Assembly (NCBI GenBank): GCA_024137785.1
Contig: JAHRHZ010000133.1
Location: forward strand, 67,070,245-67,134,244
DNA length: 64,000 bases
Source of the DNA: Ginglymostoma cirratum
Taxonomy: Eukaryota
Direction: 5' to 3'
In this document: piece by piece, positions 2,656 to 60,981 of the stretch
Numbering within the stretch: position 1 is the first letter of the stretch
Layout: every line of letters begins with the position of its first letter
The notes under the pieces: generated by a model
The model's database searches: none
Seen by the model: only the letters and a program-made list of their open reading frames with translations
Told to the model about the DNA's origin: nothing
Program-made: the position numbers and the translations under genes

Positions 2656-2699
2656 AAATATAATCACTCATACAATACAATCTAAAATATTACCAAAAG

Positions 2700-12208: not shown

Positions 12209-13022
12209 AGCAGTTTCAAGTTAACCACTTAGGTGCGAGCCCAGAGGCCAGACTGATTACAGGGAACAGGTTTCCTTCCCTAAAGACATGTGCAAACCAA
12301 TTTTAATTTTAGCGCTATCGGATAGCCTTATGGTCATTACGGCTTTTCAAAACTGAACCTAACTTCTCAAAGTACCACAATAGGATCTGAATGCACGTTC
12401 TCTGCATTATTAAAACATGTCTCCGCTTTACTAGTCCTATCCAATAAAATAACCATCATACACCAAGTAACATGACACAAGAATTTTCAAACAACTGATA
12501 ACTGAGGCAGGTGTCTGGGAGTTTTCAGACTGTTGACAAGAACGATTAACACATCGCTTGGTTTCAATTTACCAATATGCCTCACTTGGGCCAATTTACT
12601 CCACAGATTTTAAAACTTTGAAGAGTTACAACATTATCCAAGTTGCCTACCAGATACAATCATGACGTTGAAACAGGGAAGAGGCTTTTGATTCAGTATG
12701 CCTTTGTGATTGCTACTGTGTGTGCGCGCGCACGCATGCATGGGTTTGCCCATTCGTGTGCTGGGAAAAGCAATTCAGCAACATGTTCAGAATTGGCCAC
12801 TTATGTTTTCAGTGCCCAGTGCAGCTGTTTCCTCGGATGCACAAATTAAAATACAGCCAGTGTGAAGGCCTTGCATATGACTTCAAACCAACCGTAAAGC
12901 CTGAATCATGCACATTAAACAGGAGAAGCCTAATGATGCATTCTGAAGTGCAATGGTACAAATAATGGATGTAAAACCCTACTGGATTCACAGGGGATCA
13001 GGCCAGATGAGGAAAGGGTTAA

Positions 13023-13155
13023 CAAAAGAAAAGCATAAGTATTGCAGATGCTGAAAATCTGAAACGAATGCAGAAAATACTGAGATACGCTATCTGGCAG
13101 CAGTTGTGGAAAGAGAAACAGAGTTAACATTGAGTCCAATATGGCTCTTCTTCAG
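13023..13155 (-). mobile_element. Old short Penelope-like copy with degenerate hammerhead; 9-bp TSD
   Basis: Minus strand CTGAAGA agagccatattggactc aatgttaac...cagcatctgca. TSD aagggttaa at 13014-13022 and 13156-13164. Confidence 0.7.
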
Positions 13156-14979
13156 AAGGGTTAATATGTTAGGGGTGAGCGTGGAGGGGAATTGGCAACC
13201 TATACTTCCAAAATCTGTTGGAATAACGCAATACATCCAAAGAGATCTTTTTCAATCTGACTTATGCCTTCTGGCTCTATCGGATGAGAAGCTTGAGCTA
13301 ATTGGTTGACAACACAGGGAACACAGCAGGAGCCCTGTGGTTGTTTATCCCCCATATGATCATAGGGAAAAACACGAACGAACGGCCTTTCCTTCCTTTG
13401 CCCATTGCCTACGTGACTCTTCAATTGATCTTGGGAATCCAGTTGACTTGCTACCTTGTATCCTCCTGCTAACCAACTCCAAACAGGAAGTGGATTGGTG
13501 GAATCTAAACAGACCCACATGATTAAAATCAACCAAGGTCTCCCTCCCTCTGTCCAGAGAACAGATGGTACATTAATTGGTGGGAGTGGTTTCTTACTTG
13601 CCCCGATTTTGGAATAGCCATAGCCAGGGTCAAAGGCAGGCCGAGAACTCTGACCAAACGTTTTTGCTTCTTCCAGCCTAAAAGTAGCATCTGCACTGTC
13701 AGGTGGCCATGGGAAACAGGCATCAATGTGATGACTCCATGGGAGAATAGCTGGCAGACACCTGCTACCTGAGGGATGTAATGCACCCCAGTACGAGGAG
13801 AGATGAATAGAGACAAAGTATAATCTTCACATCACTTTTCAAGCAGGAGTTTGGTGAAGTGTATAAAATATATCTTGCCTCGCAGGGCAAGGTTTAAAGG
13901 ATATTTGTCAACAGACAGTACTTTCTGCTTGCATTCCAGAAAAGCCTCCTTTCATTCCATTTAAAACAACTGGCAAAGTTCAATGTCATTCCTTGACGAG
14001 TAACATTTTCCTAATCTCCATCTCTAAATTAAACACAACAACAAAAACAAAATGAGGGGAAACAAGCATCTTGGTTAAAATCCTGGATAGAGAGGAAAGA
14101 TAGCCATGAGGTTGGGGGGGGGGGGTCGGGGGATTAGTCTTCTCCCTCAATAACAGGCCAAAAGCTAGCCATGTAAACCCATCCTCTCAAGTCGGAAAGA
14201 CACTCGCAGACTTGTCACACAGTACAAAAGTCATCAGTAACTAAATGTTCTTAGCTGCACCGCAATTAAGCAAAATCAATATGATGTGCCAGAAATGGTA
14301 TTTTACTTTCAATAAGGTTTTCGGCTGAGTTTATTCAGAATATTTTAGCCGCCCCCAGGGGGATTTTGCTCAGTCACAGATGGCAAATAAAGTCCTCAGC
14401 CTCAGGCTACATAGTATTATGTTAATTCCAATGTCAGATGTACTTTTATATACAGCTCTATTTAATCACCCCATTATTCTGCATTTCCATATGAAAAAAA
14501 CCCCACAGCAGCTCCTGCTCAGTCCTCACCACAATGGCTGCCTTACCCTTCAGCTTAGAGAACTGAATTCACACTGGTCACTAATATCTCTCCTCAGAAA
14601 GGACAAAAAAAAGACATAATAATAATCAAAAATGCAGCTGCTGTGTTTGCAAAAACCTGTACAAGTTACAGAGGTTGATTTAAATAGCCGGAAGCTGGAA
14701 AATGTTAACCAATTAGCTCAAGCTGCCAGCCACGACATGGATTTGCAGTTCAAATCTGCAGCAGACAGAAGATATTGCAGAAATGGCCCATCAGAATGGT
14801 TCAGCTCTTAAAATCTGGCATCTGCCAACCTTGTGCCACTCTTTCAAAACTGTCTGAAAGTGTTCTATGGAACCTGGTGCCTAAATCATGCTCAAACTGT
14901 ACAGAGAGATGAAGAGTTACTTTCACAATAAATGCCTGGTGCATTACAGCGATGCAGATTGATTGATGAATGATCCCTA

Positions 14980-15320
14980 ACCTGAGGTAGCTGATCTAGT
15001 CAAGCAGCAGAGGAGACATTTAACTGAAATACTGTCTGCCATCTCAAATGAGTATAAGAATTCCTCTGGCACTACTTCTAAGAGAAGGACGGTATTTCTC
15101 CTGAAATCCTGGGCTAACAATTACTTTTCAATAAACATGGCCAAAATGAAAAGTATTCAAGCACAGAACTCTGCTTTTTGTGGGAGTCTGCTGTGTGTAA
15201 ATTGGCTGTCACATTTCCCACTTTACAACAGTCACAGCACAGTTTCTGAAACTTTCTTCCCTCGCTTTTTGTGGGATGGGCTGAGATTGTGAAAGGTGCT
15301 ACACAAGTGTTAGTTCTGGC
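14980..15320 (+). mobile_element. SacSINE1-like DeuSINE
   Basis: ctgctttttgtgggagtctgctgtgtgtaaattggctgtcacatttcccactttacaacagtcac...tgtgaaaggtgctacacaagtg. Confidence 0.7.
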
Positions 15321-18159
15321 CTTTTGTCAAGTAAATACCCATGAGAAAAGAAAGTTTGAAAATGGGCCATGGTTGTATCTCCTGGTCACAGCTGAGACAA
15401 ACAGTCATGTTTAAAAAGGCCAGCTGCAATTATTTGGTAAGGACATGGTCACCCTTAATAATCAACCCTCACTCTCTAATCTAATCACACTGGAGGGGAC
15501 TGCGAATGTGGTGGTGGGGGAGAGAGGTACATGGGGTGATTAGTGAGGAGAAGGCTAATTACAGCATTTTAAAAACTATTGTAGAGTCAATTAGTGTCTA
15601 GGTCCTTGCAATTAACTTTGGACACGGAGAGAACGTTTTTAGTACCCAATTCAAAAAGGATATTCAGACTCCACTGACTAGTGGAACTGAATTAGAATCT
15701 CCAATTTACTTATTAAAACAATGCCACCCCCAATATCCAAACCCAAATGGTTACTACTGTCAACATGTCGCAATGGCCCAAATAAAGTTTTTATTAACAT
15801 ATTTACAAGAGAATCATTACATACTAACAGATGTGAAGCTGCTATGCAAGATTGACACATACGTCCTACATGTGCGACAGCTACCACTTCCAGTTTGGCA
15901 CAATCAAAAGTCAGCCAATCAGAAAGCACAACCATGTTAAGTATACACAGACGCAAGGATAAGGAAGGGACTTTCTGCATATCTCGATCATCCCTACACT
16001 GCTTAGGTTGATTAAATCTAGCATGCAACCACATTTTTAACAACTCTGATGACCATAGATGCTGCTACCGTACATCCAAACATTTCAACTTCTAAAAAAT
16101 CCTGATACCTATTTTTAAAACTTACTTGCTTGCCGATTTTAATTGGCTTGTTCTGACTTGACTTGAAGCAAGCCAAAAGACTCACCTTATCTGTTCAAGT
16201 CTGTACTTGATAATCATGTAGTTGTTTTTTTTTGGGGGGGGGTACAAAGTGGAGTTCACTGACTCCTCACTCCAAGTGGGGACCTCAGCAAAAAGTCTGG
16301 ATCGGAGAATCAGAGCCAGAAAATGTTAGCCTGCTTTCAATTTGTACACTCCATTTCAAGTACTACTTTCTGTTAAGGGGCCAGCATCATAGAGTAAACT
16401 CCTTGACATGTTCCACCTGTGCTTTAGCACTCCAACGGCACTGTACATCTTTGACTTTGTCTCCTACCTCAAACTTTGCCTACCACTGTCCTTTACTGAT
16501 AACATTTCTGAAGGCCATGATGGAGTGGTGTGGGATGGAGGAAGACATGCGTAGATGAGTCGAGGTGCGTTGCCTAAACATTTTGTCAAATCCAAAGCCA
16601 TCTCTCAATCAGGCTGCTCATCTAAGTGATGTGCAAACTGAGTAACTATTAATTCTAAACTACACAGCTTAGGTCTGAAGTTAATCCGTTAAGTCCAATT
16701 AACTCTGTGATACTGCTCAATGTTCCAATCCCTTTTGATAAAAACAAACTTAACATCACAGTTCTGATTATGATCCTGTCAAGCATTTTAATATGTCCTA
16801 CTACATCAATGGCAGAAGACAAACGCAAGTTGTTACTGTTAATCCCAGTCTGGTGTGTAAATTGCACTACTCGCTGAAGTCCATTCTCATCAAAATCTCT
16901 GGCAAACTGCAATTCTGCCTCTTTTTACACCTCATTTCTCCTGTTTGTAGATGACACAAGTAAAGCTGCTCCCAGGAGCTCCAGTAAAGAAAGCCTGCGA
17001 CAGGGGCTGTTCCAAAGGTAAACACTAAAGGGTTGTCTCAAAACCACACTGGCCGATCATTTCACTCCAGATCAGTTCTTCCCACTTTTATTTGTCTTTT
17101 GCCTTTGTTGTACAATTGCATTAAAGCTACTATTTAGCCGACACGAACAAAATCAACTGTATCATTAAACCAGAGGATCACCAAATGGTGCTAAAACGTC
17201 TTGAGACTTTCTGCTTGTAATTCTGGAAAGATGAAAAATGCCCGAGAGTCTGCTTTGATAAATACTGTGAAAAAGGTCACGTCCAGCTTATCTGGACAAC
17301 CTTGGTTATTCATTTGTCTTGCCACTCCGAAATGTCACAGTCCTGTGCTCTAGGTTTTCACCTCCGCCTTCTAACCAACATTCGGTTGTATGGTCACTTT
17401 ACTGACCTAGGTATTTCTCCAGACCCACCACTGGACTGTGTCAGTGGGAAACAAATGGTTCTAAATGAAAGCTTTTAAAAAAAATCTGAGACTCAGCATC
17501 TTCTTATAACAAAAGAGCACTGACTTCTTTTTTGTTCTGCCCCCTTCCTCCAAGCAATAAAGCGGAGACTTAATCTATAGATTGAGAGGGAAAGAGATAG
17601 AGGAAAGTTCAATCAAGAAGCCTTTCAAGCCCACAGCAACGTGGCCACGAAAAACCTTCCAGAAAACCGGTTCCAGGTATGTTTTATTAAAAAAAAACTT
17701 CACCAATTAGTATCTTCCCACCTCTTGGTCATTGTTACAAGTGACCCAAGTATGGGGTTCATGGAGGAGAGAAAAGGAAAAGTAAAAATTTACAAAAATC
17801 AGGAAACTTTCAAAAGACAAAGCTTAATTTGGTCAACAGGTTGGTGATGTAGCAAAGTGGATTCTCCATCCAAAGCCTACAGAGTCACAACAGGATGAGC
17901 AAGTGAGAGCTACAATGGGTGAGTGGTTCACATGTCCAAGTTAATGAGGGAGTGTGTTGAAAATGGTAACTTGTTAATGGAAGGGCATTTAATTTAAGAA
18001 GCTGACATCTCATGGGAGCAGCCTGACTGAACTATTGCCCAAAACAGCAGAGTGAACCTACTGAAACGACAGCAAACTGACCACTGCCATGTGTGTACAG
18101 GATGCCAATCCATGTGGAACGACACAGAGAAGGGACATTGTGGCACAAAATACACATGC

Positions 18160-20050
18160 TGTACAAGGAAACAGAACTATTGGAAACTGTAGCATGGTAA
18201 GAGGTATTCAACCCACCCTCCCTGTGATGCCTGCATAAATTAGCTGCCTAATCTAATCCCATTTATCATCTAGTCAGTAGCCTTGCAAGTTACAGCTCTT
18301 CAGGTATTTGAGTTGAGTTCTGATCGAGTTGCCTCAACCTCCAAACTGGGCAGTAAATTCTCTGCATGAGAAACCCTTTTCCTCATGTGCCCTATAATTC
18401 TTCCACCAATCACTTTAAATCTGTGTCCCCTGGAAACTGAACTCTCCATTTGGGCAAACTGGTCCCATAACCCTCATTATTTTGCTCATCTCAAATGAGT
18501 CATCTCTACACCTCCTCTGTACTACGGAGACAACTCTAGCCTATCCAGTCTTTCCTCATAGTTGTAATTTTTAAGCCTTGGCAACATTCTTGCAAATGAA
18601 TTATGTCCTTCCTGTGATAGGATCATAATTGTACACAAAACTCTAACTCTGTCTTAACACACTTCCAGCAGTGCATCCCAGCTATTACATTCAATACCTC
18701 GTCCAATGAAGTAACAACCTTATCTACCTGTCTTACCAGTTTCAGGGACCCGTGCATTTGTGCTCTAATATCTCTCACTTTCTCTCTCTCTCACTACTCT
18801 CATTTTTGTGCATTCCCCTGCTTTGTTCACCTTCTCCAAACACCTTAGCTCACAGTCCTCCATAATGAATTCTATTTGCCATTTTTGACCCTCTCAACCA
18901 AATCATTCATATCATCCTGCAGTCGATAGCCATTCTTTTCCCCATCTATTACCCAGACTGGGTCATCTGTAAATTTCCCAATTATGTCTCCCACATTTAA
19001 GTCCAAATCATTAATATATACCACAACCAACAAGGGAATCAAAGCTAAGCCTCGTCGATCATCATTAGAAATTAGGTCCATTTGCAAAAACATCCATCAA
19101 CCATTACCCAGTGTTCTCTCACTGAACCAATTCTGGATTCAACTGGCCACATTCTCCTCTATCTCACAGGCTTTGATTTGTCTGACCAGTATACCACATA
19201 GGATGTTGCTAAATGCCTTCCAAAAATCCAAGTAGACAACATCCCATTGCACTAGGCTAATCAATCCTCATTGTTACTTCTTCAAAAATTCAATTAAGCT
19301 AGCAAGACATAAACTTCTCGTAACAAAACTGTACTGACTATCCCTGATTAATCTGAGCCTATCCAAGCAATAGTTAATCATACCTCTCAGTCTGTAATAA
19401 ATTGTAATAAATTGCCCACATCTGATGGCAGACTGACTAACCTATATTATTTGGCCCTGCATCCTTTTAGAGCAATGATAGAATCTTTACAAGCCTCCAG
19501 ACCTGTTACTTCACCTGTATTAAGTAAGGATTCGAACATGATCCTCTGGGCATCCACTACTTCCTCCCTGGTTTACTTTATCAGCTTAGGAAACCATTCT
19601 TCCAGCCCTGCTGATTTACCCACCTCCAGAGGTCAGTCCCTCCAGTACTTCCCTTCTCATTATGTTCATTATATATATTTCATACTCCTCCTCTTTAACT
19701 AGAATCATCCCTCTCCATTGTGAAGATAGAGTCAAAGCACTCATTAAGAATCCTGCCCACATCTTCTGCATCCACGTACGAGTTACCAAGTATCGCTGAC
19801 AGCCCTGCCCTTTCCTTGTCATCCTCTTGGTCTTAATATACTGATAAAACATCTTTGGATTTACATCGATCTTACCAGTCAATATTTTACATTATCTACA
19901 TTTTCTGAAGTTTCTTTCTTGCTTCATCACTGTACTTCCTTTAACTCTGTTAAGCTTCCAGAAGTATTACTTTTTTGAGACTGTCTCAAAGCTTTATTCT
20001 TCTGCTTTATCTTACCCTGCATGCATCTGGATAACCGAGAGACCTAGACT
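18160..20050 (-). mobile_element. Long decayed CR1 LINE (ORF2/RT remnant)
   Basis: Minus-strand peptides VYINDLDLNVGDIIGKFTDD (degenerate FADD) and PKMFYQYIKTKRMTR, plus a CR1-type 3' region. Confidence 0.85.
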
Positions 20051-23000
20051 TGTCGGAGATCTAGGCGATAGTGTCACTGTGTGGTAGTGTCCCTTGCTGG
20101 GGAGACAAGTCCAGGTCTCACTGCTACTGGCTGTTAGGTATGGTTGCACCAGTGGGCACATGCTCCTTAAGACTCAGGGGAGAAAAGAAGATTATTTGTC
20201 TGCTCACTCTCTGCTTCAGCTACCTGCCACCATTTGGGAAACTTAGGCGACAGTGGTGTGTGATCACAGATAGGCATAAAAAGCAGCTTTTGGCACAAAG
20301 CTTATTCATTGTTCCCTATTACTCCCTACAATACAAATTTGATACAACACATTGAAACAGAAATAGAAAACTCAATCACACTTTATTTGAATAAGGCAGA
20401 ACTAGAATTTAAAGTGGGTAACTGTGGTGGAGAAGATAGAATTTTAAAATCCCCTAGTGCGATATATTAATCCAAAAATATACCGCTATTCCAATGGAGA
20501 ATGAGGGGTGTTAGAAAGATTTTGATTTGTTTTGATCAGCTTGCCCTTTGAAGCAGAAGAGACAGTCACTGAAGCTCAGTCTGCACACGATTGCACCATG
20601 CACCAAACAGCACAATGATGCTGAAAGTTGCAGCCCACAAGCTGAGCTGAACTGGAGAAATGGATTAAATAACAAACCATGTGGCTAAATTCATCCACCA
20701 ACAGCGAAGAGCAACCCGCAGACACCACCCTGTTTCTTTTTGGAATTGGAAGAAATTAGTATAAAACTGAAAAAAAAAACAGAAGAGTAAAAACTGCAAC
20801 CTGGCAGCAGCTAGAGCCCTTCACATATACCGGAAGACAAGACTCACCTACTCAAAGTCTTTTAATATCTTAAGCCTACCCTGGTTTTTAAAATTCGCAG
20901 CCAGCAGCAAAGTCAACGGCTTTAACCCTTTGCCGCAAAATGTCTACTCGTGGCCACTTACCTTTTTGTGTGAGAACAATGAGTCAGGGCTGGGTGGGTG
21001 TGGTGGGTGAAGTAGTAGTAGAGGAAGGGCAAATGAGAAAATTTGCAATGGAAATGATTCTCGTCTAAGCTTACAGTTTTAGGCCACACTAAGTAGTCCA
21101 CCTGACATTTGTGCAATTGGGTTACCAATACTCTGCAGCCAGTACAAGCCGTCCAAATTTTCCATGCTTTACATTCCCCAAGGTTAACATCAACAGAGTG
21201 GTTGCAAATTACCTTGCCAACACCCACTTCCTGCGCAACCCAGACTCAAAATAATTTACCTGATCTGTACAGCCTCAGGAGACACAGATTGTAAGATCAA
21301 ACTGGACAGAACAGCAAGTGTAACTACCCTACACAGCAAGTGAAAACCAAGTGAAGGTCTACAGTGTAAGACATTTCAAAATAGAGGGGCGTAGAGGGGG
21401 AAACAGTGGTGAGGAAAACAATGCAATTTGGGGAAAGATCCAAGTGGACACAGATTGATACTAAACTCACAAAATTCTGCTGAGTCAGAAATGCAGGACA
21501 ATAAGAGGTTAAAAGGATTGCTGTGCTTTCTATGCACAGTGAAGGTGTGAGCCTTCTAGCTTTTAATTTGCTCTTCCTATTTGTAACTGCCAGTGAATAT
21601 AAAGTTTTGAAAATACCTGACATTTTAAACAACAGTGGGAATATTTTGTCAACAGAACACACTATTTAAAAAAAATCATTATAAGCAGTTCCGGAATACT
21701 GTATTGAGGCAAAACATGCAGCAGAAAACAGGAGGCTGGAATGGTTTCTAAAGTGATGTGGAGATGAAGGGGGAAGGGGCCTACCCAGGATAACCTAACA
21801 ACGGGGTAATCCACCTGTTTTGCACAAGACCACCCAAGACAGTAGGTTCTATCTGTGGGTGCAAGCTCCTGTTTCACACCAGGACCATCGATGCAGTTTT
21901 AAAGCTGTTTGTTTTGCTCCACCCCAAGTTTGAGACAGCCTTCCCCACAAAAAAGGGAAGATAGCTGGAAAGTTGCGCAAAATGCTCTCAGACTTAGAAG
22001 GAAGCTTACATTGCATGGAAAAACACAGCCATGCTGAAAACTGAAAGACAGAAAAGCAGATCATCAGAGCCGTTTTGAAAGAGGTCCACTGTCCCTAACG
22101 CATGTGAATCCTCCAGCAGAGTCAGCCAGTGACAGACAGCAGGGATCCTGGAAAACTTTACTGCCTTTTTGCTTATCCTAGGGGCACCAAGTCCAATTCA
22201 TGGAAAGTGGGGCAGTGATTATAGGCTTACTGCTCTCAGGAGTGAGCCAAGGTCCAAGTTTAACAATTTGCATGAAAGATGATAATACACTGGATACTGG
22301 GACCCAACAAATTTAATATAAAAAAAGCCTGCATCCTGTCCTCAGACAATTATCACAGTTTGTCCAAATCTTGACTAAAAAGGGACTTTGGAAATTCACG
22401 TTTCATTTAAAAGTCTAAGGGTATCGTCCACGTAAACTCTGCAGAAAAACAAGGTGCCTCTCAGCTTAGCTGCTTAAGCTGTTCTACAATACTGATATCA
22501 GGCAAATAAGAGAGACACCTCCTGGACACCTCTTTAGAATGTTAAGGGTTAACAAGGAAGTGCAGAAATGTGCATGGTAAAACAACATTGAGAGAAAGCG
22601 CGTGAAAGGGAGCGATATAGTGACAGGAAGAGAAAGAAACAGACATCACCAGAGAAAGAGTGAGAAATCACGGGAGCACAGAGACAGACAGGTTAATGGA
22701 GCAGCATTATGAGAGAAAGTGAGAGAGAAATAATGAGAAAGCAAAAAAAAAAGAAAAAAAATCGCCCAAGCCTGTGCCAGAGAAAGCCCTTCTTTTAAGA
22801 GTTAGTCAGTCCGCATGGACTGTGACTCGAAGGAATGCTGTGCTTGCTTTGGACACTGTTCACACACTGTGCTGGCAAAGGGCTGCTTGGAAAGAGCACA
22901 GTAAAATGCCGTCAGAGACATTCACACTCACATCCTAACAGTTCCTACCATCCGTTTTCTAACATCACACGTGCCAAGGGAAGCAAGATCAACAACACAA

Positions 23001-23559
23001 AAACCTTGTCAGCGCAGGCTTGCCAAGTGTTTATTTATTTTTATATTATAATGAAGTAACACGTGTTCACATACTGCATTTCTGATGTAGCCTCCCTGAC
23101 TTATAGAAAGTGTTTATTTAGGCACAGCTCTTTATATACACAAATGATGACTTTGGACATTTTCCTAAAGTATAACAGCTACTGCTGGCTTCCTCAAAAT
23201 TGCAGTCAACGTTACTGCTTATTGAGCCTTTTTAAGATAAAGGCCATGTCAAGTTAGAATGACACTCACTTGAATGACTACTGGGCTCATTGTCTTCAGC
23301 CATGTCTGGTTTCTTCTTTGATAACTAGGTTTTAAAAATAGATTTTCCCATTCTTTACTGCCCTCCACTGCATCCCCCCCCCACCCCCGAACGCATTAAC
23401 ATGCTCCCACTGATGCCAGCAGCTGCTCTAGTGCCTCATCATCATGCTCTCGTTTGTGTGGGTGAAGCTGGACCAACGGCAGACAGACTAAAACAGTGCC
23501 TGTGCTGTCCACTGTGAAGCAATATAAATTAAGAGATACATCGTCATTTCTCGTCTCAG

Positions 23560-23850
23560 TCTAAGGATACAAGGAAGACCATTTAGGGCTGAGTTGAGGA
23601 GAAATTTGTTCAACAGTGAGTGATGAGCCTATGAAATTCTCTGCCACTGAAAGCAGTTGAGGCCAAAATTTGAATATTTTCAAGGCGGCGATAGACACAG
23701 TTCTTAAGGCTAAAGTGATCACCAGGTATGGGGAGAAAGCAGGAGCAGAGTACTGAGTTGGATGATCAACCGCGATCATAGTGAATTGCAGAGCAGGTTC
23801 AAAGGGCTGAATGGCCTACCCTTGTTCCTATTTTCTATGTTTCTATGTCT
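23560..23850 (+). mobile_element. CR1 LINE 3' fragment
   Basis: atttagggctgagttgaggagaaattt...aagggctgaatggcctacccttgttcctattttctatgtttctatg. Confidence 0.85.
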
Positions 23851-24609
23851 CATTAACAATTACAATAAATAATTACATTTGTGTTTCCCTTTGGTAGGAT
23901 TTTTTCTGGTGAAGGTGAGGTAACAGAACATTTTAAAACAAAAAGAAAAACTTCTTCTTAACAAACACATGACAAGCTGACTTTGCTCTAAAAGTGAAAG
24001 AAGCTCATAAGACATCTTTAAGCAGCAGATCTCAGGCTTACTTTCACTTTTAGCATTTAAAAGCAAGGATTTTGTTTTGCTGTTGTTGCCTCAGATGGAA
24101 TGAATCCAATAAATTCTTGGCGATGTTAATAAATTTGTACTCTACAACACGACTCATGGGAATAGGTGCAAGGCCTTTGCAAATTTACAATTTAAAAGTG
24201 GCTCTTGAAAACTGTTCATTACTCCCTGACAGATGCTATAGAAACCATTAACAATTCCGCTTGTTTTGGGAGAAGGACAGCGTGCACAGTTTTTGTGTAT
24301 CAATCAGGAAACTTTGCAAATGACCTACTTAAACAAAAACCAAGCTGGAAAATGAAGAGGAGTTGTAGGATTGCAGAACTTCCAGGTACAGTTTCCAAAA
24401 CTTTCACTGTGATAGGAATCCCTCTCTAAACTCTCCACACAAACTCTTCTCCATTCAAACAGCCTGCCATCTCAGGGCACACAACACAAGCCACTTGGAG
24501 GGTGAAAACCAGCAACGTGTTCTGAAGCTCTAAACCAGCAAGCACAAAATCATTTCAGCAACTAGTTGCCTTCTGGATTGCAGGATGAAGTATCCAACTA
24601 TTTTATGTC

Positions 24610-28610: not shown

Positions 28611-30257
28611 GATGCACATGCCAGAAACAAGCAGCCCTGCCACCCCTACTAAGTGTAATATTAAAACAGCTGCAGATATCAACACACATGATAGGGCATG
28701 TTTTACTCGCAACTTCCAAGTAAACCTCGAGTATAAAAGTGGATCTTTCCACTTTGCTTCATCTGTTGCCACCATCAGAAGACTGAAAGAAATTACACGG
28801 AAACATGTTAAATCCTGTCCGCTTTCACATCATGTTTTCTTTTTGAATGCTTTTTAAACTTAGCTAAATTTTTAATTTATTATTTTCAGTAAGGCACTGG
28901 AACAAAACCAATCTCAATTTCAATAATCTAGTACAAGTATGTAGAAGCCCTGTAGCTTGTATGATCTTCTAAATTGTACTTTTTGCCCAAAGCAGGGATA
29001 TAACCAGTTACATTTGCTAAATGTCTGGACATTCTTGCTCAGTAATCCTGCAAATCTTCAACCTAGATTAGGCACTGGATTAAAATTACCACATCAATAA
29101 TACAATAGACTCCTTATTCTTCTATTCTTCCTTTCCCTTGTTCCACCCTCCCAATGCTGATTTTAAGACCTAATATTCCAATTATTTTTGTGTAAATTAT
29201 TAAATTCTTCATAAATATTGTGGTCACACTTCATCTGCACCTTTAGAATGAAAAGCAAACTCATCTTTGATCCTTTGGGAAGATCTGATACAAACACTTT
29301 AAATTTACTCCTGCTATCCTACACCACGGTGTTTCCTGAAATTAAAAATCCTTTGGGTCTAATAGTCATTGTCAGTCAAAGGTTTTCACCAGATCTACTA
29401 ACTTAACACAACAGCAATCCTCCCAAAGTGATGGCAGAAAAGAATTTCAGTTTTTTTTAAATATATATATATTTTAGCAGATAAAATACTCCAAAGACAT
29501 TAGCAGACCAAAACGAGATCACCACAGTAACTGTGCAATTGACAAACTGGCAAATGCTACAAATACTGTAATGCTTAAAGGCTGCTGTGTTTACATTGCT
29601 CTGGAGCTATTTTTAAACCGAGGAGCTCTTCACTATAAGAATGACGTGCTGATTGTACTGAATAATCAATGAGCACATGAGCAAGTCGATTCATTTATGG
29701 GTTTCAACTTAAAAATTGCATTGAGAAAGCAGCAATTGGGAAATCTGCACATAACTTGATCTTGATTATTTCAAAAAAGATTATTACCAGTACAAAATAG
29801 TCCAATATGAAAGAAAGATGGAATCCCTTTATTAGGTTAAGGGTTACAGGACTGAGGGGAGGCTGGTGCTGAAGAAGGGTCAACCATGAAGAGGTGAACA
29901 AGTTGAAGGGCTCAATGTCCAAGGCCTATCCCTATCTTTCTAAGAGAACTGTAGCTGAACAGATTGTTGGGGTTTTTTTTTATATAGTTTTGTGAAATGT
30001 CACAAGTACACATCTGAGCCAGTCAACATGTGGAACAGCAAGGCAGTTGAGACGGCAGGAGAAACAGTCATCAGTTCCAGTGAGATGCTCAACCACAGAG
30101 AGTGTGTGTTTTTTGTTTCAGATTCAATTTTCTCCACCCTGTCAACTGGACATAAAAAGTTCCTGCGCTACTTGTTCTGAAGGCTGTCAGGGAAATTCTT
30201 CCCTGAGTTCTAATCAACATATAGCCCTCACCATTATCACAGAAAAAAGTTATGATC

Positions 30258-30690
30258 TGGAGGCTTTTAATTATGAGGAGAGGTTGAATAAACTTGGATT
30301 GTTTTCACAGCAAAGATAGACACTGAGGGGCGACCTGGTAGAGGTTTACAAGACTATGAAAGGCATGAATACGGTGGATAATCAGAGGCTTTTTCCCCAG
30401 GGTGGAAAGATCAACTACAAGAGGGCACAGGTTCAAGCTGAGGGGGAACTGTTTAGGGGGAAAAGTGCAGGGAAAACTTTTCACGCAGAGGGTGGTGAGT
30501 TCCTGAAATACACTGCCAGTGGATGTGATGAAAGCAGGTACGTTTGCAACGTTTAAGGCATATCTTGATAGACACATGAATGGAAGGCGGACAGAGGGTT
30601 AGAAGCAGCGCATGGGCAAAAAATAGCGGGAATAGGAATCAGCACAGGCTTGGTGGGCCGAAGGGCCTGATCCTAAGCTGTACTGTATTG
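30258..30690 (+). mobile_element. CR1 3' fragment nested in a SacSINE1-like element (30185-30845)
   Basis: Encodes NYEERLNKLGLFS and ends in gggccgaagggcctg...ctgtactgt. The Deu-like core continues after 30690. Confidence 0.8.
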
Positions 30691-31430
30691 TATCACGGTG
30701 CTGCAGTTTGCAAGAGTTTTCTGTCCACAAACTGGCTACTTGCTTTTCCTGCAAAGTGACTGCACTTCAAGAACACTTCAATAACCATAAATGTTTTGGG
30801 ACATCCTAAAGTGGTGGAAGATGTCATATAAAAGCAAGTCTTCCTAACTCTATCTTCCTATCAATGAACCTTAAAAGACTCCAGCCAGAGATAGTAACCG
30901 AGACAGCAAATTGTTATTGAGAGCAAATCACAAAATTAATATATAAACATTTCCTGCCAAAAGAGATACAGAGCCAAGCAAGACTTTTCTTTTATTTTGG
31001 AAAAGGGGAAGGCAATCTGCACAAAATACAAGAGGCAGGTTAACAACTGTGATTAATTCTGACATGTTTGGAATAACTAAAATTAGCAGATCTGAACCCT
31101 GCTGACTTTTTAAACACGGCCAAAATGCTTCACAAACTTTTTTTTAAAAAATTGGGATTGAGCGGCCGGTCAGTGACACTGCGCACAAGTGTTAATGTTA
31201 ACCACCAGTGAAACTGTGTTACATGTCAAGACAGTTCAAGTAAATCTATTCAACACAAAACAATTAACAAAAACACTTCGAAAAGAGTAGACTTCTGTTT
31301 AAAAAGGGAGCACAAATGTCTGCAAACTGCTTTGTTAACTTTTGGAAACATTCTCCGTGGAATGGAAAGCTGAATTTGCAACAAAATCAAAACAGTGTAT
31401 CCACTTTGCGGTGCGGAACACAATGGGTTG

Positions 31431-31529
31431 TGAAGAGGGGTCACCGAACCCAAAACGTTAACTCTGATTTCTCTCCACAGATGCTGCCAGACCTGCCAAG
31501 ATTTTCCAGCAATTTCTGTTTTTCTTACT
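31431..31529 (+). mobile_element. Short Penelope-like copy with degenerate hammerhead; 8-bp TSD
   Basis: tgaaga ggggtcaccgaaccc aaaacgttaac...cagatgctgccagacctg. TSD atgggttg at 31423-31430 and 31530-31537. Confidence 0.75.
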
Positions 31530-32584
31530 ATGGGTTGGTGGAATGGTTAATAAAGAATTATCTAAAACATAAGAAGGCAAACATATTTTCCTTCAACTCT
31601 GGGAATGCTTTTGGTGTCTTAGGTACTTTATCATCTTTAATGGTCACAGTTCACTTGCACAGCACTGCAAACCTCCTGGTAATTTACATCCACTGGGCAA
31701 TACTCCCTTCTGTCCATCATGTAACCAAATGCATAGCAAACTTTTTTCTCCTTACACCACATGAAAGATATCATTCTGTGATGAAACTGCTTTCCCTGTT
31801 GACCTCTAAAATCCACAGGAGTTGTTTTACTTACTTGGACCTGAGCTCGCTGCCACTTCTGCTGCATCCCTGAATGTTACACAAATCACACTGCCAACCG
31901 ATCCATATTTCAGTGACACACTCATATCTCCAGTCAGTAGGTCATGGACTTAAACCCTGCTCCAGTGTCTTGAACAAAAAAATTTAGACAACACAAAATG
32001 CTGGCGGCATCATTCCAACAATCATTGTGATGAAACAAATACAGCCCAAAATGAGGCCATATGGCCCATCAAGCCTGTGCTGAGAATCCCATGTTCTTAG
32101 CATCAGCTGGAAATAGAGGACAGATGCTAGAATTTGTCTACCCTGTTCTCAGGGGAAACCAGCTGAAGGCTAGCAAGAGCGAAAGAAGATGCAAGCCTCT
32201 GTCTGAGAGGAAAGATGCATGAAACCAAGAACTGAGACAGAGAATACAGGGGCAATGCAGTGTGGGTGTGGAACATGCAAGAGTGTGAAAAGGACAAAAC
32301 CGAAGGATCTGTAAACAACTGAGTTTTGCACTTGAAGACAAAGGATTGTCAGTACACAGAAGACAGGAGAAATGTTTGTGGACACCACAGAGCATGACCT
32401 TTGATACCCTATTTCCCACTTGGTGATTTAATCTGGAGATCCTTTATATTCAAGTGATATTTCAGGACTTGGTCCTACAATCCCTGAGGGGCAAGGAATG
32501 AGCATATATGTGCATAAACATATGCTGTTGTGTATCTGTGTATATATAGTCTGTGCTTGTGTATACTACACATATTTTAGTTCA

Positions 32585-32885
32585 TTCATGTAGACCTCAC
32601 TGGCACGGCCAACATTTAATGACCATTCCTAACTAGACTAAATGAGTTTTTGTTAGCTTGTTTGAGAGGGCAGTTAGGAATCTCCCACATTGTTGTGGGT
32701 CTGAAATCACAGATCAGACCAGGAAAGGACAGTACAAGAAGTTCAATAAACCAGATGGATTTTTGAACAATCCAACAGTTCCATAATCAACATTGCTGAG
32801 ACTGGTTGCCTTTTTGTTTTTTGACTGAATTGAAATCCCCTAGCCACCATGGTGGGATCTGAACTTTTGACTCCTGGATCAAATA
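32585..32885 (-). mobile_element. Shark tRNA-derived SINE
   Basis: Reversed box B (gtgggatctgaac), with body and tail matching 38225-38595. Confidence 0.7.
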
Positions 32886-32924
32886 GTTACGATACAGGGA
32901 CAGCGTTATGGCAAAAGCGAGAAT

Positions 32925-32926
<2 letters not shown>

Positions 32927-32996
<70 letters not shown>
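32927..32996. repeat. (GT)35 microsatellite
   Basis: Perfect 70-bp dinucleotide run. Confidence 0.98.
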
Positions 32997-32998
<2 letters not shown>

Positions 32999-35384
32999 AT
33001 ATACATCATTTATGCATAAAATGCGAACTGTCTGCTGTTCTCATACTGCCGCACACAAGCAGCTGGGGATTCCTAAAAATAATGATCTGCTGGGTGCAGC
33101 CTTTTTGCAAATCGGACAGTTTGAGTTCTTCAGAGGCACAATCCAGTTACAGAACTGCACAGGATGCACTGGGCTGGGATTAAATTAACAAAATGCTTCA
33201 AATAATGCTGGAGTCGTGAAGAGGAAAAATAAAGGGTTAATTGAGCTCAGCAGGAAAGCTGTCATATGGCAGCTCCATGTGCCCTTCCAATTATTGAAAT
33301 GATCTGCTGAGTTCCCTGGGGAGATGTCACACTGCATTTCACAGCGACATTGAATGGCTACGCGTTATATTAGAGGCAGCCCACTCGGATAGGCTATAGG
33401 AGGTGTCACATTTGTGGACATGTGAAACGGAATGACTGCCAGGAAAGAAACAAAACTGCCAGACATCCTTTTTTTCCTTCTTCTTGGAATGGTACAAATA
33501 GTTGCAATTTTATGTGGGAGGGCAGGGAATAAATCATTTAAAAGGTTGGCGATTTAATAAAAGGTTAAAGTCAGTGTTGTCTGCAATCTGTTCTACACCT
33601 GCCACTGAAAGTAAAGCAGTAGATTTTCTACTAATCTGGTTTGGAAACCTGTGACAAGCACAGATCCACCTATGCCAATCCATCAGCCTGTACTTCCAGT
33701 AGGGAAATATTTTAACTCCACGCTGCACAGATATATTTTATCAAGCCCAACACATTTACACTAACACAATTAAGATGATTTTTCCATCATTCAATTCCTC
33801 TTCCCCCCACAACCTCTCAAAAAAAAAGAAAGTGCACCCAGTACAAGGCACCATTCTCAAAATGGGGATCCTTTACATCGGGGAAAGTGTTAAAAAAAAA
33901 AATCCCTTGAAGCTTCTGTAAAAACGTGATGGGAAGGAATGATACAAGTAGCCTTAGCACCCCTGAACAAGGAAGAACAATCAGCCTCTCCCGGTCAAAT
34001 CCAAGGACAGAATACCAATGACACCATTATCCCGCTCTCAATAAATGCAGGCACATGGCTGCAGAAAGTCCACTTAAGTTTTCAAACTCTGTAAAGCCCC
34101 CAACAAGGCACAACAGCAGTTTTAAAAGGACAGTGCGGCACTACTAGTTACAAACGAATAACAGTGTTTCATCCCAACCAGTTTCAACAAATTGCTCCCA
34201 ATAAACATTTGTACGTGGGCTACATCCATAGTTGCTTAACGTAATGGCAGTGAAGACTGTTACACACCACGTGTAAGGCAGCTCCTCAAATCAATAGACA
34301 TAATGTTCAACATGCCAATGGGACAAGTTCCCATTCATTCAGTAAAGTTAGGGTTAATCACAGTTCAATCTGCACAGGATTTCTGGGCCAATAGCCATTT
34401 ATTTTTCCCTGTATAATTTATGGTTCTGTGTCGTGCCGTTCCATTAAATTCCTTATGTGTGTACTCTCTTCTGAACCTTATTTTTTTAAAACAGTTACAG
34501 TATAAATATTACTTCATTACAGTCAATTGAAACCTCATTAATAAGAACACCTTGGTTAAAACTGACTCAGTCTTTTGTTCCCCTAGAAATGAGCCAATCT
34601 TTTTTTTTAAACATACAAGGCACACACAGAAGATTTCACCGCAACCTTAACAGTATAAATCACTGATAACAATAAAATGGGAGCTGTCAATCCCCACACA
34701 CAGTTCTTGTTGCTGAGGTATGGCTTCTTTTCTAAAATACTCTGCATCTAAAATACTTTGCATTGCATTGTCATATAGAATAATCACAAGTTAAATAACA
34801 GCTTGTGCTAAGTATAAAGAGTGCCCATTCCTTTATTTTCCTCAGAATGCACTGATAGCAGGTAGGGCATTGAATATCGCACACTAACAAGAAAGGGCTA
34901 TACAAAATAACTGTGCAGCACTCAAGATTCAAAGCAAACAGGCAATTTAACTGAAACTCATTACATCTTTATTTTTTTTAAAATTAAAGCATCAGTATTA
35001 GAAGTAAGGTCATTAAAAAAAAATGATTTTATACATGTACGTCAAAACATTGAACACAAGGGAAGAATTGGCCATCTTCATCAAAGAGACCTCTATTCAG
35101 AACAAGCCATCAAAGTTGGCTTACAAGGTTTGCCCGGTAAAAGGAAACCATTCCACATGCAAGACAATTACATCATAGTTGAGAATGCAGGGGAGGTCTA
35201 TTGGAAGGAGACAGTCCCTCTGAATTTCAATTTTTAAATGTTATCATTCTCCATTGTAAACTCTCCACCATATGTTAGATCTAAGATAGAACAATCTTGA
35301 GACAGCTTTCACTGCCAAGTCAGAACAGCCCAGCCTCTGCTGCATTCCAGAACTCAGTTTTCGATATTACTCATACTCACTGAG

Positions 35385-36330
35385 TCAGAATATGGTTGGA
35401 GCAGAGGGGATCATTTGGCCCATTGTGTCCATGTCATTTCACTGGAAGATATACTCACCTAAACCCACCCCCACACCATTTTCCCATGGCTCTGCAAACT
35501 TTCTCTCCTCAGGAACTGCCTAATTCTCTTTGAAAGCCACAATGTACCTACCACATTCTCCACAGATCCTAAACACTCACTGCATAAAATAAGTTTTCAT
35601 GCATGTCACCATTGCTTCTTTTCAAATCACCTTAAATTGGTGCCATCTAGTCCTTGATCTTTCCAGCAATAAGAACTGTCCATCCCTATCTACTCTGTCC
35701 AAACACTTCATGATTTAGAGCACCTCATTCAAATACCGCCCCCCCAGTCTTGGCTGAGAAGAACGGCCCCAGTTTCTCCAATCTATACATGTAGTTGAAG
35801 TCTCTCAATCCTGGAACCATTGTCGTGAATCATTTTTGATCCCTCACATCTTTTCTAAAGCATGCTGTCCAGAATTGGGCAAAAGACTCCAGTTGAAGCC
35901 AACCCAGTATTTTAATGGGTTCATATGTAACTTCATTGCTTTTGTACTATGTGAACCCATTTATGACACTCAGGGTCTCTTTGCCTTAGTAGCTGCTTTC
36001 TCAATCTGCCATGCCGTACAGTCAACACATCACAGAGACCAGCATAGAAAAAGACCTTCTCTGCCTATCATGTTGGTGTTGGTCAAAACCAGCCACATAA
36101 CAATTCTAATCCCATTTTCCAGCTCTTGACCCATAGACGACTATGGCCTGACATCTCAAATGCACATCTAAATGCTTCGTTCAAGGTCATGAGGGTTTCT
36201 GTCTCTATCATTTCACATAGTGAGTTCCAGATTCCTAACGCCCTGCATGTGAAAAGGTTTTTTCGCCTCACATCTCCTCCAAACTTTCTGCCCCTTGCCT
36301 GAAATCTATACTCCTGATCATTGATCCTAC
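35385..36330 (-). mobile_element. Two adjacent CR1 3' fragments (35385-36020; 36020-36330)
   Basis: Two reversed CR1 tails; peptide MRRKNLFTCRALGIWNSL resembles the CR1 ORF2 C-terminus. Confidence 0.75.
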
Positions 36331-37780
36331 TATCTTTAATAACCTACAAAATTCCAAAAGCATGATAAAGCAGACTAACTTGAGGTGGGAGGGTGGGTTC
36401 TGGTTCTCTAAATGCACCAGATCTTACTTGCTTGTAAAGTCCTGTGTTGCCAACTCTTCATTCACCAGTGCAATTCGATGACAGCACATCACAACTCAAG
36501 ATAGGACAGCCAAGAGAGATGCTTGCACTGCTGGAGAACCCAGGAGAAGGCTCCTATCTTTGACAGTGGGGTGAATGAATGGAAAAACAAGCTGGAAACG
36601 AATTGAGAAAACAAGCCTTGGTACTCTGTTTTGAGCTGAGCAGTTGTCATGGTCATGCACATTAGGGCTATCAGCTGTGCGGGCTATGAGCCACAGTCTA
36701 TAAAAATGTCAGTGCTGCAGTAATTAAGAGGCACAGGCTAGCTACTGAATGATAAGCTTTCTTTTTACCAGACTGCAATGAAAGAGGCCATCAGAGCAGC
36801 AAGAGGTTATTAACATTTTGTTTTTTTTAAATGATATATTTCGCTTTCCATTCAACAGCTCAGTTAACACACAGTCACCAAAAAACAATGGAGGTGTGAA
36901 GCCAGACACAAACAACCTAACTGCTTCAATCAACCAAAGTTTAGGGTCATTGCTGTGTTCCTGTGAGGTGGTTCTTTCTGTGGTCTTTCTTAAATGATTT
37001 TACCTGTGTTGTGTTTCCTAACATTTTCCAGACCATCAAGTTGTTCCATCTAAATTTGTACATTAAGTCAGTGGTGTGATATCAAAGCTGGCAATTTATA
37101 TTAGACTCTTTCCTCAGTAACAAGGAGTCATCAATTTAAACTGGTCACAAAGAGAGCAAGGAAGGTGGCTTGGGAAAAAAAAGCTTTATGCCAAGAATAT
37201 TTGATGGCTTTGCCAACAGCAGTGGTTGATGCGGAGAGAGGAAAAAAAACTTTAGGGGAACGCTGCAGAAATATTTGTAGCAGAAAAAGAACTACAGGGA
37301 CAGCACAGTCCAGTAGAATTAGTTTTGCACTGCTCCAACTGAACGATCTTCTGTGTTATAAACCTTTACAATACTGCATTACACAATCTCACTGTTGGTA
37401 AGCAAAACAACTTGCACGTGGGGGATTGAAAGTCTGTTGGGGAAGGGGAATTTGGGAGTAAAGATTGTATATACAAGCCTTTGACCTCATCATGTTGTGC
37501 TTTAAATGGTTCATGGACAATACTGATTTGCTTCTCTCAAAATGCCCCCAGAACAACAACCATCAATGGCCAACATTCACTCCAAATTATACCATTCTAA
37601 ATGGTCTCTCTGGGAATAAATGACATTGACAGGGCAAAAATCATGGAATGCAAATAAAAGCCAGATCAGAAGAAGGTCCGTTGCTTGATTTACATCAGCT
37701 GATTGTAATATCATTTCTCTGTAATTTCCCTGTATGTTTTCATCTTCTTCAACTCCTTACCTAGTATGTTCTAATCTGCT

Positions 37781-37920
37781 CAGTTCTGAGGAAGGGTCCC
37801 GGGACCAGAAATGTTAACTTTGTTTCTCCCTTCACAGATGCTGCTAGAACTGTTGAGCTTCTCCAGCAACTATGTTTTTGTTCCTGATTTACAGCATCTG
37901 CAGTTCTTTCGGTTTTTATT
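37781..37920 (+). mobile_element. Short Penelope-like copy with hammerhead motif; 16-bp TSD
   Basis: cagtt CTGAGGA agggtcccgggacca GAAA tgttaac...cagcatctgcag. TSD tatgt(t/c)ctaatctgct at 37765-37780 and 37921-37936. Confidence 0.8.
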
Positions 37921-38224
37921 TATGTCCTAATCTGCTGTTGGTCATAAGGTTAGCTGGACATGATAATTATTTGACATTCACAGATTTACTGCTACACCTC
38001 TCTGAAATCCCAGAGAAATGTCCTGTTCTCTTCTGCTCCTAATAAAGAATATGGGAACAGAGAAGCTTTGGGTTGGAGATAGGATTGCAAAACCATTGGC
38101 AGTGTTAACATCTAACCTAAGGCTTCGCATAAATACAGCATCACAGATATCACCTCATTCCTAAGTATGCTATTTGTGCGTGCCCTGCACATATATGTAC
38201 AGGGTTATGTCACAGCTGTGTAAC

Positions 38225-38595
38225 AGAGCAAGTAATCCAGAGGCCTGGGCTAATAATCTAGAAAATACGAGTTCATCTCCAACTGTGGTAGTGTAAATTT
38301 TTTGTGTTTGATCGTAGGTTTAAGAATCCGAAAATTAAAAAATGTTATCTGTAAAAGTGACCAGGAATATTTCAAATTGATCTAAAATTTTGACTGGGTT
38401 CCTTAGTTCCCTTTCGTAAAGGAAATCTGCTTCCTTAGCTGGTTTGGCCCATAAACATCTCCAGTCCCAAACCATTATTAAATGGGCCTAGCAAGGCACT
38501 CAGTTCATCCAATTACTACTTAGAAGATATTCACCAACACCTCAATCGGAGAAGGACAATAAATATCAGTTCCCCCACATCCCCAGAGAAGACAA
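38225..38595 (+). mobile_element. Shark tRNA-derived SINE
   Basis: agtaatccagaggcctgggctaat...aaggaaatctgc...gcctagcaaggcactcagttc...caataaat...cccacatccc. Confidence 0.7.
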
Positions 38596-38702
38596 ATTTA
38601 AAATAAGGTCAATGCAACTCACGAGCAAACAGAATAAGTGCTTGCTTAACATTCTTAATTGGTTCCTGGAAAACTCAACATTATATGAAACATTATATGA
38701 AA

Positions 38703-38840
38703 TATCATTTCTGATGAAGGGTCTAGGCCTGAAACGTCAAGTTTTCCTGCTCCTATGATGCTGCTTGGCCTGCTGTGTGTTCATCCAGCCCCACGCCTTG
38801 TTATCTCGGATTCTCCAGCATCTGCAGTACCTTTTATCTC
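38703..38840 (+). mobile_element. Young short Penelope-like copy with hammerhead motif (38707-38742); 12-bp TSD
   Basis: attt CTGATGA agggtctaggcct GAAA cGTC aagt; near-identical to 12075-12208. Flanked by cattatatgaaa. Confidence 0.85.
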
Positions 38841-40339
38841 CATTATATGAAACATAATTTCCCATGGACACAATGTTATAACAAGGGGTTGCATTCATGT
38901 GGGAAGACATTCGGAATATACATTCCCATAAAAACAGGAACATTGACATTGTGAAGTTAGTAAATTATATACATCGTCAACAATAAATCTGTCCTGCTGT
39001 GAGAAGGTCACGATAACCAAGTTTAGGTAGTCACTATGAACGAATGGTGATGAATTTGGATTTTACTGGAGGTTCGGATGACATTTTGAATGAGTTTTGG
39101 TGAGTATATAATGTGTTTTTATTTAGCAGGACAACAGGAAATCACTACAGAACTAATCACAGCACATATAAAAATCTGGGCTGCTTCCAGTCTTTCTGAG
39201 ACCTCACATGCCCTCCATTTCCCACCCCAGCTTACACAGGGTTATACAGGAATGTCTAGACACAGAGGTTTAGATGTACAAACATTAGCATGCAACAGCA
39301 GTAATACAACATGAAAGCAGAATATTAATTGGACAGCAATGGATATGCGAAACGATGCTGCTTGGGGCAACATTAAGCAAGGCCTTCCCACATTGACTAA
39401 ACAAATACCTAACACCCAAAGAGCTACAACTTACACAACAATCAAAAATAAACTGGCATTCCCTGCTTTTCATTTTACCAACATGGAAAGGTTCAGGTAT
39501 TTATGCAAGCACCTTCCAAGAATGAATATTGAGATCAGTGTCTATAACTTATTTTTAAACTTAGTAATCAGAAATGCAATTAGCCACATCTGGATTCTCA
39601 ATTAGCTACATGTGGGTAGTGTCTAATGTACTGGACTACATTGCAGTAAATCAGCTAATGAGTGTAGCATTTTCAGGGACTATCGAAATAGCCTGTGGGC
39701 TGAACCAGCATCACCCTTTTCTCCCCTCCTTCCAAGATGTGTGGACAGCATGGATGTGACCAGGCAAGCAATATGCAAATCTAAACAAAAAAATACATAT
39801 CCAGTAGATAGCATCAATGTGCAAATCTCTTTTAATGCATTTGCCTCAATGAACAATGAGACTGCTAAGTGAGGAAAGCTGCTTATGGACACATACTTTT
39901 CTACCAGCTTAGGGCCAGGACCAGTATTAAAGTGTAGAACTGCACTGTTGACACGACAAAACAATACAAATAAAATCAGCAATCATGAATCAGATACAGA
40001 GCTTTAACTGCAAAAAAGGGCAGAGCTTAGAATGCTTCCAGTGTCAGTTTGTTTTAGTATTTCTTTTGATCCAGTGAGTCGCTTATTAAATCATTAATGG
40101 CTTTGAAAGTGACACCACAATTGTGAGTTGAATATGGATTAATAAGCACATTACCCAGCAGAGCTGTGCTCATTTACTTCAGAGACTGCAACAGACAATA
40201 TAAAACAAAAAAAATCACAGTATATGGCAGGATCAGGGAACTATGAAACTTGACCAAGCAGTGACAAAGATCTGGAGCATCTTCCACATTTCAAAACTTT
40301 CCTTGGCCCTTCGACTACTCAGTTCAGCCAATATTCATC

Positions 40340-60941: not shown

Positions 60942-60981
60942 TGTTGAGGTTGGTTGGCTCGCCGAGTTTGTTTGTTGTTCG

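Follow-up and report, generated by a model that had tools for sequence, protein, structure and literature searches.

The 5′ starts of truncated Penelope-type insertions cluster at the front edge of a hammerhead motif in Ginglymostoma cirratum

A stretch of 64,000 nucleotides of the Ginglymostoma cirratum genome (assembly GCA_024137785.1, contig JAHRHZ010000133.1, forward strand, positions 67,070,245 to 67,134,244), referred to below as the window, contains short hammerhead-bearing elements of the Penelope type. Why do insertions of different ages, flanked by their own target-site duplications (TSDs), begin at almost the same place, just ahead of the ribozyme core? The original prediction for this locus was that the folded, uncleaved ribozyme makes reverse transcriptase (RT) stall or switch template, or that a hammerhead and its tail form a defined non-autonomous unit. 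We find that these stubs are 5′-truncated insertions of a Penelope-type retrotransposon, ordinary by every testable feature, and that they are unlikely to be retrozymes or short interspersed elements (SINEs). As elements they are common remnants of a known class and not a new mini-element; their notable feature is the shared start at the front edge of the ribozyme. Positions in the elements are numbered from the C of CUGA (position 0), with negative values upstream and positive values downstream of CUGA.

Truncated insertions and their clustered starts

The window consists of vertebrate DNA with a GC content of 40% and three gaps of N. It was searched with a profile built from seven arms, each beginning at or after −5, so that the census is blind to upstream sequence. 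Twelve arms with E<1e-3 were detected across nine loci, and no match below E=1 was obtained with the reversed window as a control. The five copies of the original prediction were all recovered; it had missed seven of the 12 arms, including the four arms of loci A and B that enter gaps of 400 N. The 5′ start could be placed for seven arms, the remaining ones being the four gap-edge arms and a copy at 50606..50735 (plus strand), which is too decayed to be placed.

The stubs consist of a hammerhead motif and about 60-100 downstream bases between target duplications. Copy c1 (13023..13155, minus strand) is an old stub with a decayed hammerhead core and a tail, flanked by a 9-bp exact TSD (13156-13164 and 13014-13022). 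Copy c2 (31431..31529, plus strand) is also old and devoid of a tail; its 8-bp exact TSD occupies 31423-31430 and 31530-31537. Copy c3 (37781..37920, plus strand), the third old stub, harbors a near-intact minimal hammerhead with its core at 37786 between the two halves of a 16-bp TSD (37765-37780 and 37921-37936). Copy c4 (38703..38840, plus strand) is a young stub with an intact core at 38711; three extra letters (38703-38705) precede the element homology, which extends from 38706 (−5) to 38840, and the TSD is 12 bp long (38691-38702 and 38841-38852). The young stub c5 (60310..60422, plus strand) displayed no TSD above chance.

Duplications of 9, 8, 16, and 12 bp had been predicted for c1 to c4, and all were found in place, the 16-bp TSD with one mismatch. 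Their significance was assessed at random places of the window (n = 284 for exact duplications and n = 292 for duplications with one mismatch), and the TSD search range was extended 300 nt upstream. The probability of an exact duplication was 0.22 (wide) or 0.028 (narrow) for at least 8 bp, 0.074 or 0.018 for at least 9 bp, and 0.007 for at least 12 bp; with one mismatch, it was 0.003 for at least 16 bp. Based on these probabilities, the TSDs of c3 (P 0.003) and c4 (P 0.007) are solid, and that of c1 is likely to be genuine (P 0.018-0.074). The TSD of c2 is the weakest (P 0.028-0.22), and it is outranked by an alternative 9-bp duplication at −64. Altogether, TSDs of 8-17 bp were present at seven of the ten loci (c1 to c4, A, B, and a second family described below). 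None was found for c5 (best candidate of 7 bp, at chance level), for a pair at 47.9 kb, for the 50.6-kb copy, or for L015 and L016, two contigs considered below.

In each of two DNA runs of a related species, one contig joins 38664 to 38841 with 10 letters in between. This empty site indicates that the c4 insertion is absent from the related species and that the target 12-mer is single there. The window contains three copies of this 12-mer, one on the 3′ side of c4 and two on its 5′ side, the additional one at 38679-38690. The extra copy was probably made during or after insertion. In an alternative reading of the c4 5′ junction, a 21-bp duplication with two mismatches shifts the start to about +1.

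The starts of the seven placeable arms are −5, −5, 0, +1, +2, +10, and +17. The expectation that four copies start within about 8 nt of the CUGANGA box was borne out (c1, 0; c2, +1; c3 and c4, −5), and c5, proposed to start inside helix II, does so at +15 to +17. The two other starts belong to an old head-to-head pair (47814..48004), in which the minus arm starts at ~+10 and the plus arm at ~+2 on either side of the junction 47941/47942. None of the seven arms starts more than 8 nt upstream of CUGA, at the cleavage site (+28/+30), or downstream of it. Under an exponential truncation model, the probability that four copies fall in a 30-nt zone, picked after seeing the data, was at most 6.5e-4 over six mean lengths. 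This agrees with the earlier argument that random 5′ truncation would not produce such clustering. The lack of starts at the cleavage site supports the proposed uncleaved template, as does the description of unprocessed RNA as the dominant in vitro substrate of an anole element (PMC11167929).

As proposed, the copies belong to old and young subfamilies: pairwise identity is 63-75% among c1 to c3, 80-95% among c4, c5, and the gap-edge arms, and 56-66% between c1 to c3 and the young arms. A hammerhead descriptor matched at 37786, 38711, 61283, and 61018, and a core is also visible at 12078. Among the four named copies, the strict core descriptor was limited to c3 and c4, which also display the core boxes, extra base, helix II, and short helix I of minimal type I hammerheads, features not found in the decayed c1 and c2. 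Helix I comprises 4 bp in c3 and c4, with different, compensating letters, and 5 bp in the second family. Rfam returned four matches in the window, none of which was a hammerhead; two miRNA-like matches correspond to the centre of the fold-back at 61 kb. A core-like match at 6002 (minus strand) was inspected and set aside as unsupported.

The Penelope-type origin assigned to the copies is supported by the hammerhead motif, the head-to-head pairs, the one-sided tails, and the TSDs. Locus A (11577..12225) consists of a tail-less arm at 11594-11674 (minus strand), 400 N, and an arm at 12075-12208 (plus strand) with a 41-nt tail, within a 17-bp exact TSD. Its 3′ ends, at +90 and +131, are 41 nt apart. 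Locus B (55628..56243) surrounds 400 N, with a tail on the plus arm only and a 15-bp TSD containing one mismatch. The gaps hide the 5′ ends at both loci. An inverted 5′-truncated copy with a one-sided tail is thus present at A, B, and the 61-kb fold-back, in which the tail is 35 nt long. Stubs of this kind would be expected to lack an open reading frame (ORF). Both gaps contain exactly 400 N, which is probably a placeholder; the real inserts could be short hairpins or long elements.

Proposed copying of an uncleaved RNA up to its 5′ end

What is directly observed is the anatomy of the stubs, their TSDs, the clustering of their starts, copying through the core, and the use of two 3′ ends separated by 41 nt. 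The reading that we favor, which we regard as plausible if short of probable, is that these are ordinary 5′-truncated Penelope insertions generated by internally primed reverse transcription of an uncleaved RNA, with the cDNA running off the RNA 5′ end. The RT of the element would prime at the cut target and initiate internally, ~90 or ~130 nt to the 3′ side of the hammerhead core, in line with the two-site initiation reported for Poseidon of Anolis carolinensis (PAc; PMC11167929). The uncleaved RNA, the template also reported for PAc (PMC11167929), would then be copied through the ribozyme, and the cDNA would likely run off at the front edge of helix I. An initiation site may be present near both ends of the element's RNA, the 5′-proximal site giving rise to short stubs and the 3′ site to longer, variably truncated copies such as those detected in reads. 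The RNA of the stub family (family 1) would begin near −5, and microhomology of 0-5 nt or untemplated bases could produce the ragged starts. Junction microhomology amounts to 2 nt in c1, ~3 nt in c2, and possibly 5 nt in c4. The old copy c3 and the young copy c4 share their first dinucleotide, CA at −5/−4, within an initiator-like sequence (YYANWYY). Such a match was found at two of the six starts tested, for a background of 1.2% per position.

The window also contains, at 60930..61406, a young fold-back of a second, unrelated Penelope-type family, which the original prediction had overlooked. Its 201-nt arms are 97% complementary and carry intact hammerhead cores at 61283 (plus strand) and 61018 (minus strand), with a 6-bp helix II of −6.0 kcal/mol. 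The TSD is 9 bp long if exact and 12 bp long with one mismatch, and the tail is one-sided. The intact hammerhead was copied through in both arms, whose common start lies 124 nt before the core (−124). From this start, 45 nt are followed by a donor-like GTGAG, and an acceptor-like end is located 71 nt further on, 8 nt before the core; a donor-acceptor pair of this kind was found at 26 of 4897 random places. In Drosophila virilis Penelope, a 75-bp intron is located 46 bp after the start site (PMC2377424) and ends at helix I (PMC4209133). The two layouts are therefore similar (46/75 nt in D. virilis and 45/71 nt here, followed by helix I), with the splicing and start site being predicted in the family of the window. 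Since the arms start where the D. virilis layout predicts the start of the RNA, they appear to end at the predicted RNA start and not at the ribozyme. Family 1 differs from the D. virilis element (PMC2377424; PMC4209133) in starting much closer to the core.

Reads from two RNA runs and the two DNA runs of the related species were compared with c4, used as a reference beginning at −5. In the first RNA run, 46,761 reads matched c4, with ~10,900 of them covering the core. Upstream of −5, 2,501 reads of this run had loose ends sharing a consensus that ends in a C-rich tract (agreement 0.75), and seven reads of the second RNA run also continue upstream (agreement 0.91). Thirty letters of the upstream consensus are visible. 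This shared consensus indicates that the family is longer than the stub. The C-rich upstream motif had no match in the window. Among the joints and loose ends listed (15 of 179 joints and 24 of 470 loose-end rows), 10 of the 12 opposite-strand joints had one end at −12 to +1. Strand counts in the reads were equal, which is uninformative since the library may be unstranded. Over the core, the summed depth of the contigs reached ~2 × 10^5 times that of the flanks, a value that shows great abundance only and is not a copy number.

In searches for longer copies, a scan of viral contigs gave 14 loci, all of them unrelated chance matches, and further scans of metagenome contigs and of genome and viral contigs gave none. 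A core-pattern search of the metagenome collection yielded two contigs, L015 and L016. Both are eukaryote-derived and appear to begin within ~15 nt of the core: in L015, a possibly fish-like contig, the arms of a fold-back start at about −14 and +2, and L016 starts apparently near −5. The same start tendency is apparently found in another lineage. The two arms of the L015 fold-back (1045-1260) meet at a 6-bp palindrome immediately before the hammerhead core.

At place 38747, several contig junctions of the related species resume at or beside the letters that follow the cleavage site. Based on these junctions, a few copies may derive from self-cleaved RNA.

Several observations weigh against copying up to an RNA 5′ end near −5. 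DNA contigs clipped at −5 (50 and 54 in the two runs) keep ~10 nt of the C-rich tract before agreement falls to 0.40 and 0.51, indicating that some ends are also located further upstream and suggesting ends within the tract. An acceptor-like T-rich sequence ending in CAG, identified by eye 23 nt before the core in the family-1 upstream consensus, would place the real RNA start further upstream. A pile-up of molecule starts or ends, as produced by an RNA 5′ end, was not seen in either RNA run among the rows listed, although the power was low (polyA library and 25-read sample). Joint positions are biased, since the c4 reference begins at −5, and L015 and L016 were chosen for holding the core and lack a clear TSD. 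The initiator-like sequence is at the same time the 5′ strand of helix I, and no match to it was seen at four of the six starts. The second family is represented by one locus, and its junction is located on a TATA-like palindrome; palindrome annealing or self-priming (PMC3846280) would explain this junction without a start site. Finally, the parent ORF is not in the window, as Pfam RT or GIY-YIG domains had no match in any of the 143 open frames of at least 75 residues.

Alternative explanations and surroundings of the stubs

The alternatives are considered in decreasing order of likelihood. According to the first, which is possible though doubtful, the template is long and the hotspot is the C-rich tract itself: cDNA synthesis or second-strand joining would fail on entering the tract, owing to the G-rich cDNA or to complementarity between tract and core, and the end would be captured by microhomology. 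The tract abuts −5, and the clipped DNA contigs that keep part of it before diverging fit this explanation. So do the junction microhomologies of c1, c2, and c4, and the pairing predicted in L015 between the tract on one side of the fold-back junction and the core region on the other (z −3.3). However, the four named copies retain none of the tract, thousands of reads cross it, and the two arms of the second family end together although there is no such tract at their junction.

It is also conceivable, if unlikely, that a preferred substrate of the Penelope protein is a discrete RNA of ~135 nt that begins with helix I and ends with the tail, its two ends being held together by core-tail pairing. 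Such an RNA could arise by run-off after priming at the front copy of the start site, or it could be transcribed separately and re-mobilised as a unit. In that case, the RNA start of each family would be recorded, as a kind of 'strong-stop', in the ~10^5 genomic stubs, with a start-intron-hammerhead layout conserved between flies and this vertebrate. Concerning the pairing, the core and the 5′ strand of helix II are able to form ~10 bp with the 3′-terminal bases of the tail in c1 (13023-13155), c4 (38711-38840), and arm A (12078-12208), with P values of 0.008, 0.016, and 0.006, respectively, in comparison to shuffled sequences. Copy c4 and arm A belong to one subfamily. The pairing was absent from four of the seven sequences tested (c2, c3, L015, and L016). 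Found in three sequences of two subfamilies and spotted post hoc, it is a lead only.

Ascertainment alone appears quite unlikely to account for the clustering. Short-read assembly would resolve short copies, which a reader seeking cores would notice, and longer copies would be hidden in gaps. Indeed, four of the six young arms enter 400-N gaps after merely 68-134 nt, the loose-end reads of both RNA runs extend upstream of −5, and the profile was made from arms beginning at or after this position. In contrast, diverged old copies should assemble at any length, yet c1 to c3 and the 47.9-kb pair start between −5 and +10. The TSD search extended 300 nt upstream still put c1, c3, and c4 at the core, and shorter copies starting downstream of +17 were not found in the profile census.

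The stall or template switch at the folded, uncleaved hammerhead, possibly stabilised by protein, fared poorly and is very unlikely. RT moves 3′ to 5′ and meets helices I and II from their 3′ side, so that a stall should leave ends on the 3′ side of the ribozyme. Two of the seven arms, c5 and the minus arm of the 47.9-kb pair, do end inside helix II, and the anole hammerhead is protein-assisted (PMC11167929), suggesting that the motif may be more stable in a complex than computed. Against this, five of the seven arms were copied through helix II and lack at most 1-2 nt of the core. Helix II is worth merely −2.3 to −4.7 kcal/mol, the region folds no better than shuffled sequences (z of −0.10, +0.13, and −0.26 for monomers), and the more stable helix II of the second family was read through on both arms.

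Least credible is the dedicated non-autonomous unit, similar to a SINE or a retrozyme and mobilised in trans from its own short RNA, in spite of the −5 start common to c3 and c4 across subfamilies, the core-tail pairing in three sequences (c1, c4, and arm A), a head-to-tail joint carried by 48 of the 46,761 reads, and the description of non-autonomous Penelope derivatives (10.64898/2026.07.22.740005; PMC8557442). A unit of this kind would be expected to have one fixed start, to form separate subfamilies, and to carry a promoter; the starts are ragged (−5 to +17) over several subfamilies, a tRNA-derived head is lacking (no gene found by ARAGORN in the window, and 5S- and 7SL-type heads not seen by Rfam), discrete RNA ends were not seen in the two low-power RNA runs, the same sequence runs on upstream in many reads, pairing fails in four of the seven sequences, and every copy found is either a dispersed monomer or part of a head-to-head pair, with no tandem array in the assembled sequence.

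If the stubs are run-off products from the front copy of the internal start site, their 5′ ends report on the template used in vivo, which would be uncleaved, would begin at a defined place, and would be unspliced for the second family. The abundance of single hammerhead motifs in such genomes would be explained as well, with no ribozyme activity required. The shared start would then be a testable clue to copying by the poorly understood Penelope class.

Concerning the surroundings, the sole above-cut-off Pfam match among the 143 frames was a C2H2 zinc-finger exon. It corresponds to a 687-residue open frame at 629-2689 (minus strand), resembling the large last exon of a BCL11-type gene. The stubs are located upstream of this exon on its strand, possibly within introns of such a gene. 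Two inverted repeats are possibly ends of DNA transposons: one of 22 nt (95%) at 13290-13311 and 14703-14724, 1.4 kb apart, and one of 33 nt (88%) at 46490-46522 and 46863-46895, around a 214-N gap.

Comparison with known Penelope-like elements and retrozymes

It is still debated by which route a single RNA of a Penelope-like element gives rise to truncated, tandem, and inverted insertions, and what the hammerhead does (PMC8557442, PMC11167929). In the published literature searched, no description was found of 5′ ends that cluster just in front of the hammerhead, although subscription papers or supplements, such as figure S2 of PMC11167929, may contain it. One supplementary file of PMC8557442 contained no shark sequence or motif.

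For Penelope-like elements containing an endonuclease (EN+), 5′ truncation, adjacent inverted copies, one-sided tails of 30-40 bp, and difficulties with short-read assembly have been described (PMC8557442, PMC3846280). The stubs resemble the Penelope/Poseidon, Neptune, and Nematis insertions of these papers in their heavy 5′ truncation, inverted copies, one-sided tails, TSDs, junction palindromes, and assembly gaps. They differ in lacking an ORF and in the pile-up of 5′ ends at the front edge of the hammerhead, which the accessible portions of these papers do not describe.

The motif resembles the minimal type I hammerheads of metazoan Penelope pseudo-LTRs (PMC4209133) by the CUGANGA box, one extra base, helix II, GAAA, minimal helix III, and short helix I. 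According to that survey (PMC4209133), most motifs are single elements 'probably related to truncated PLEs', and some form close opposite-strand pairs. TSDs and 5′ ends were not mapped in the accessible part of that work (PMC4209133), and two of the four named copies described here have decayed cores.

PAc provides the closest mechanistic parallel. Its RT initiates at two internal sites bracketing the tail, one of them located 111-118 nt into an ORF that begins at helix II (PMC11167929). Both target strands are cut and extended, unprocessed RNA is the dominant in vitro substrate, and the hammerhead is protein-assisted (PMC11167929). The stubs similarly point to two internal start sites (~90 and ~130 nt behind the core), extension of both cut target strands, an uncleaved template, and AT-rich targets. 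An ORF start at helix II is not shown here, and the accessible text on PAc (PMC11167929) does not analyze the positions of 5′ ends in vivo.

Finally, metazoan non-LTR retrozymes (PMC7229834; 10.64898/2026.07.22.740005) share with the stubs a type I hammerhead, a non-coding sequence, and a relationship to Penelope. Tandem hammerhead units were found at none of the nine family-1 loci in the assembled sequence, two of which contain gaps. Whereas retrozymes, as described in the accessible parts of these sources (PMC7229834; 10.64898/2026.07.22.740005), are head-to-tail tandem units yielding circular RNA, the copies of the window are TSD-flanked dispersed monomers and head-to-head pairs.

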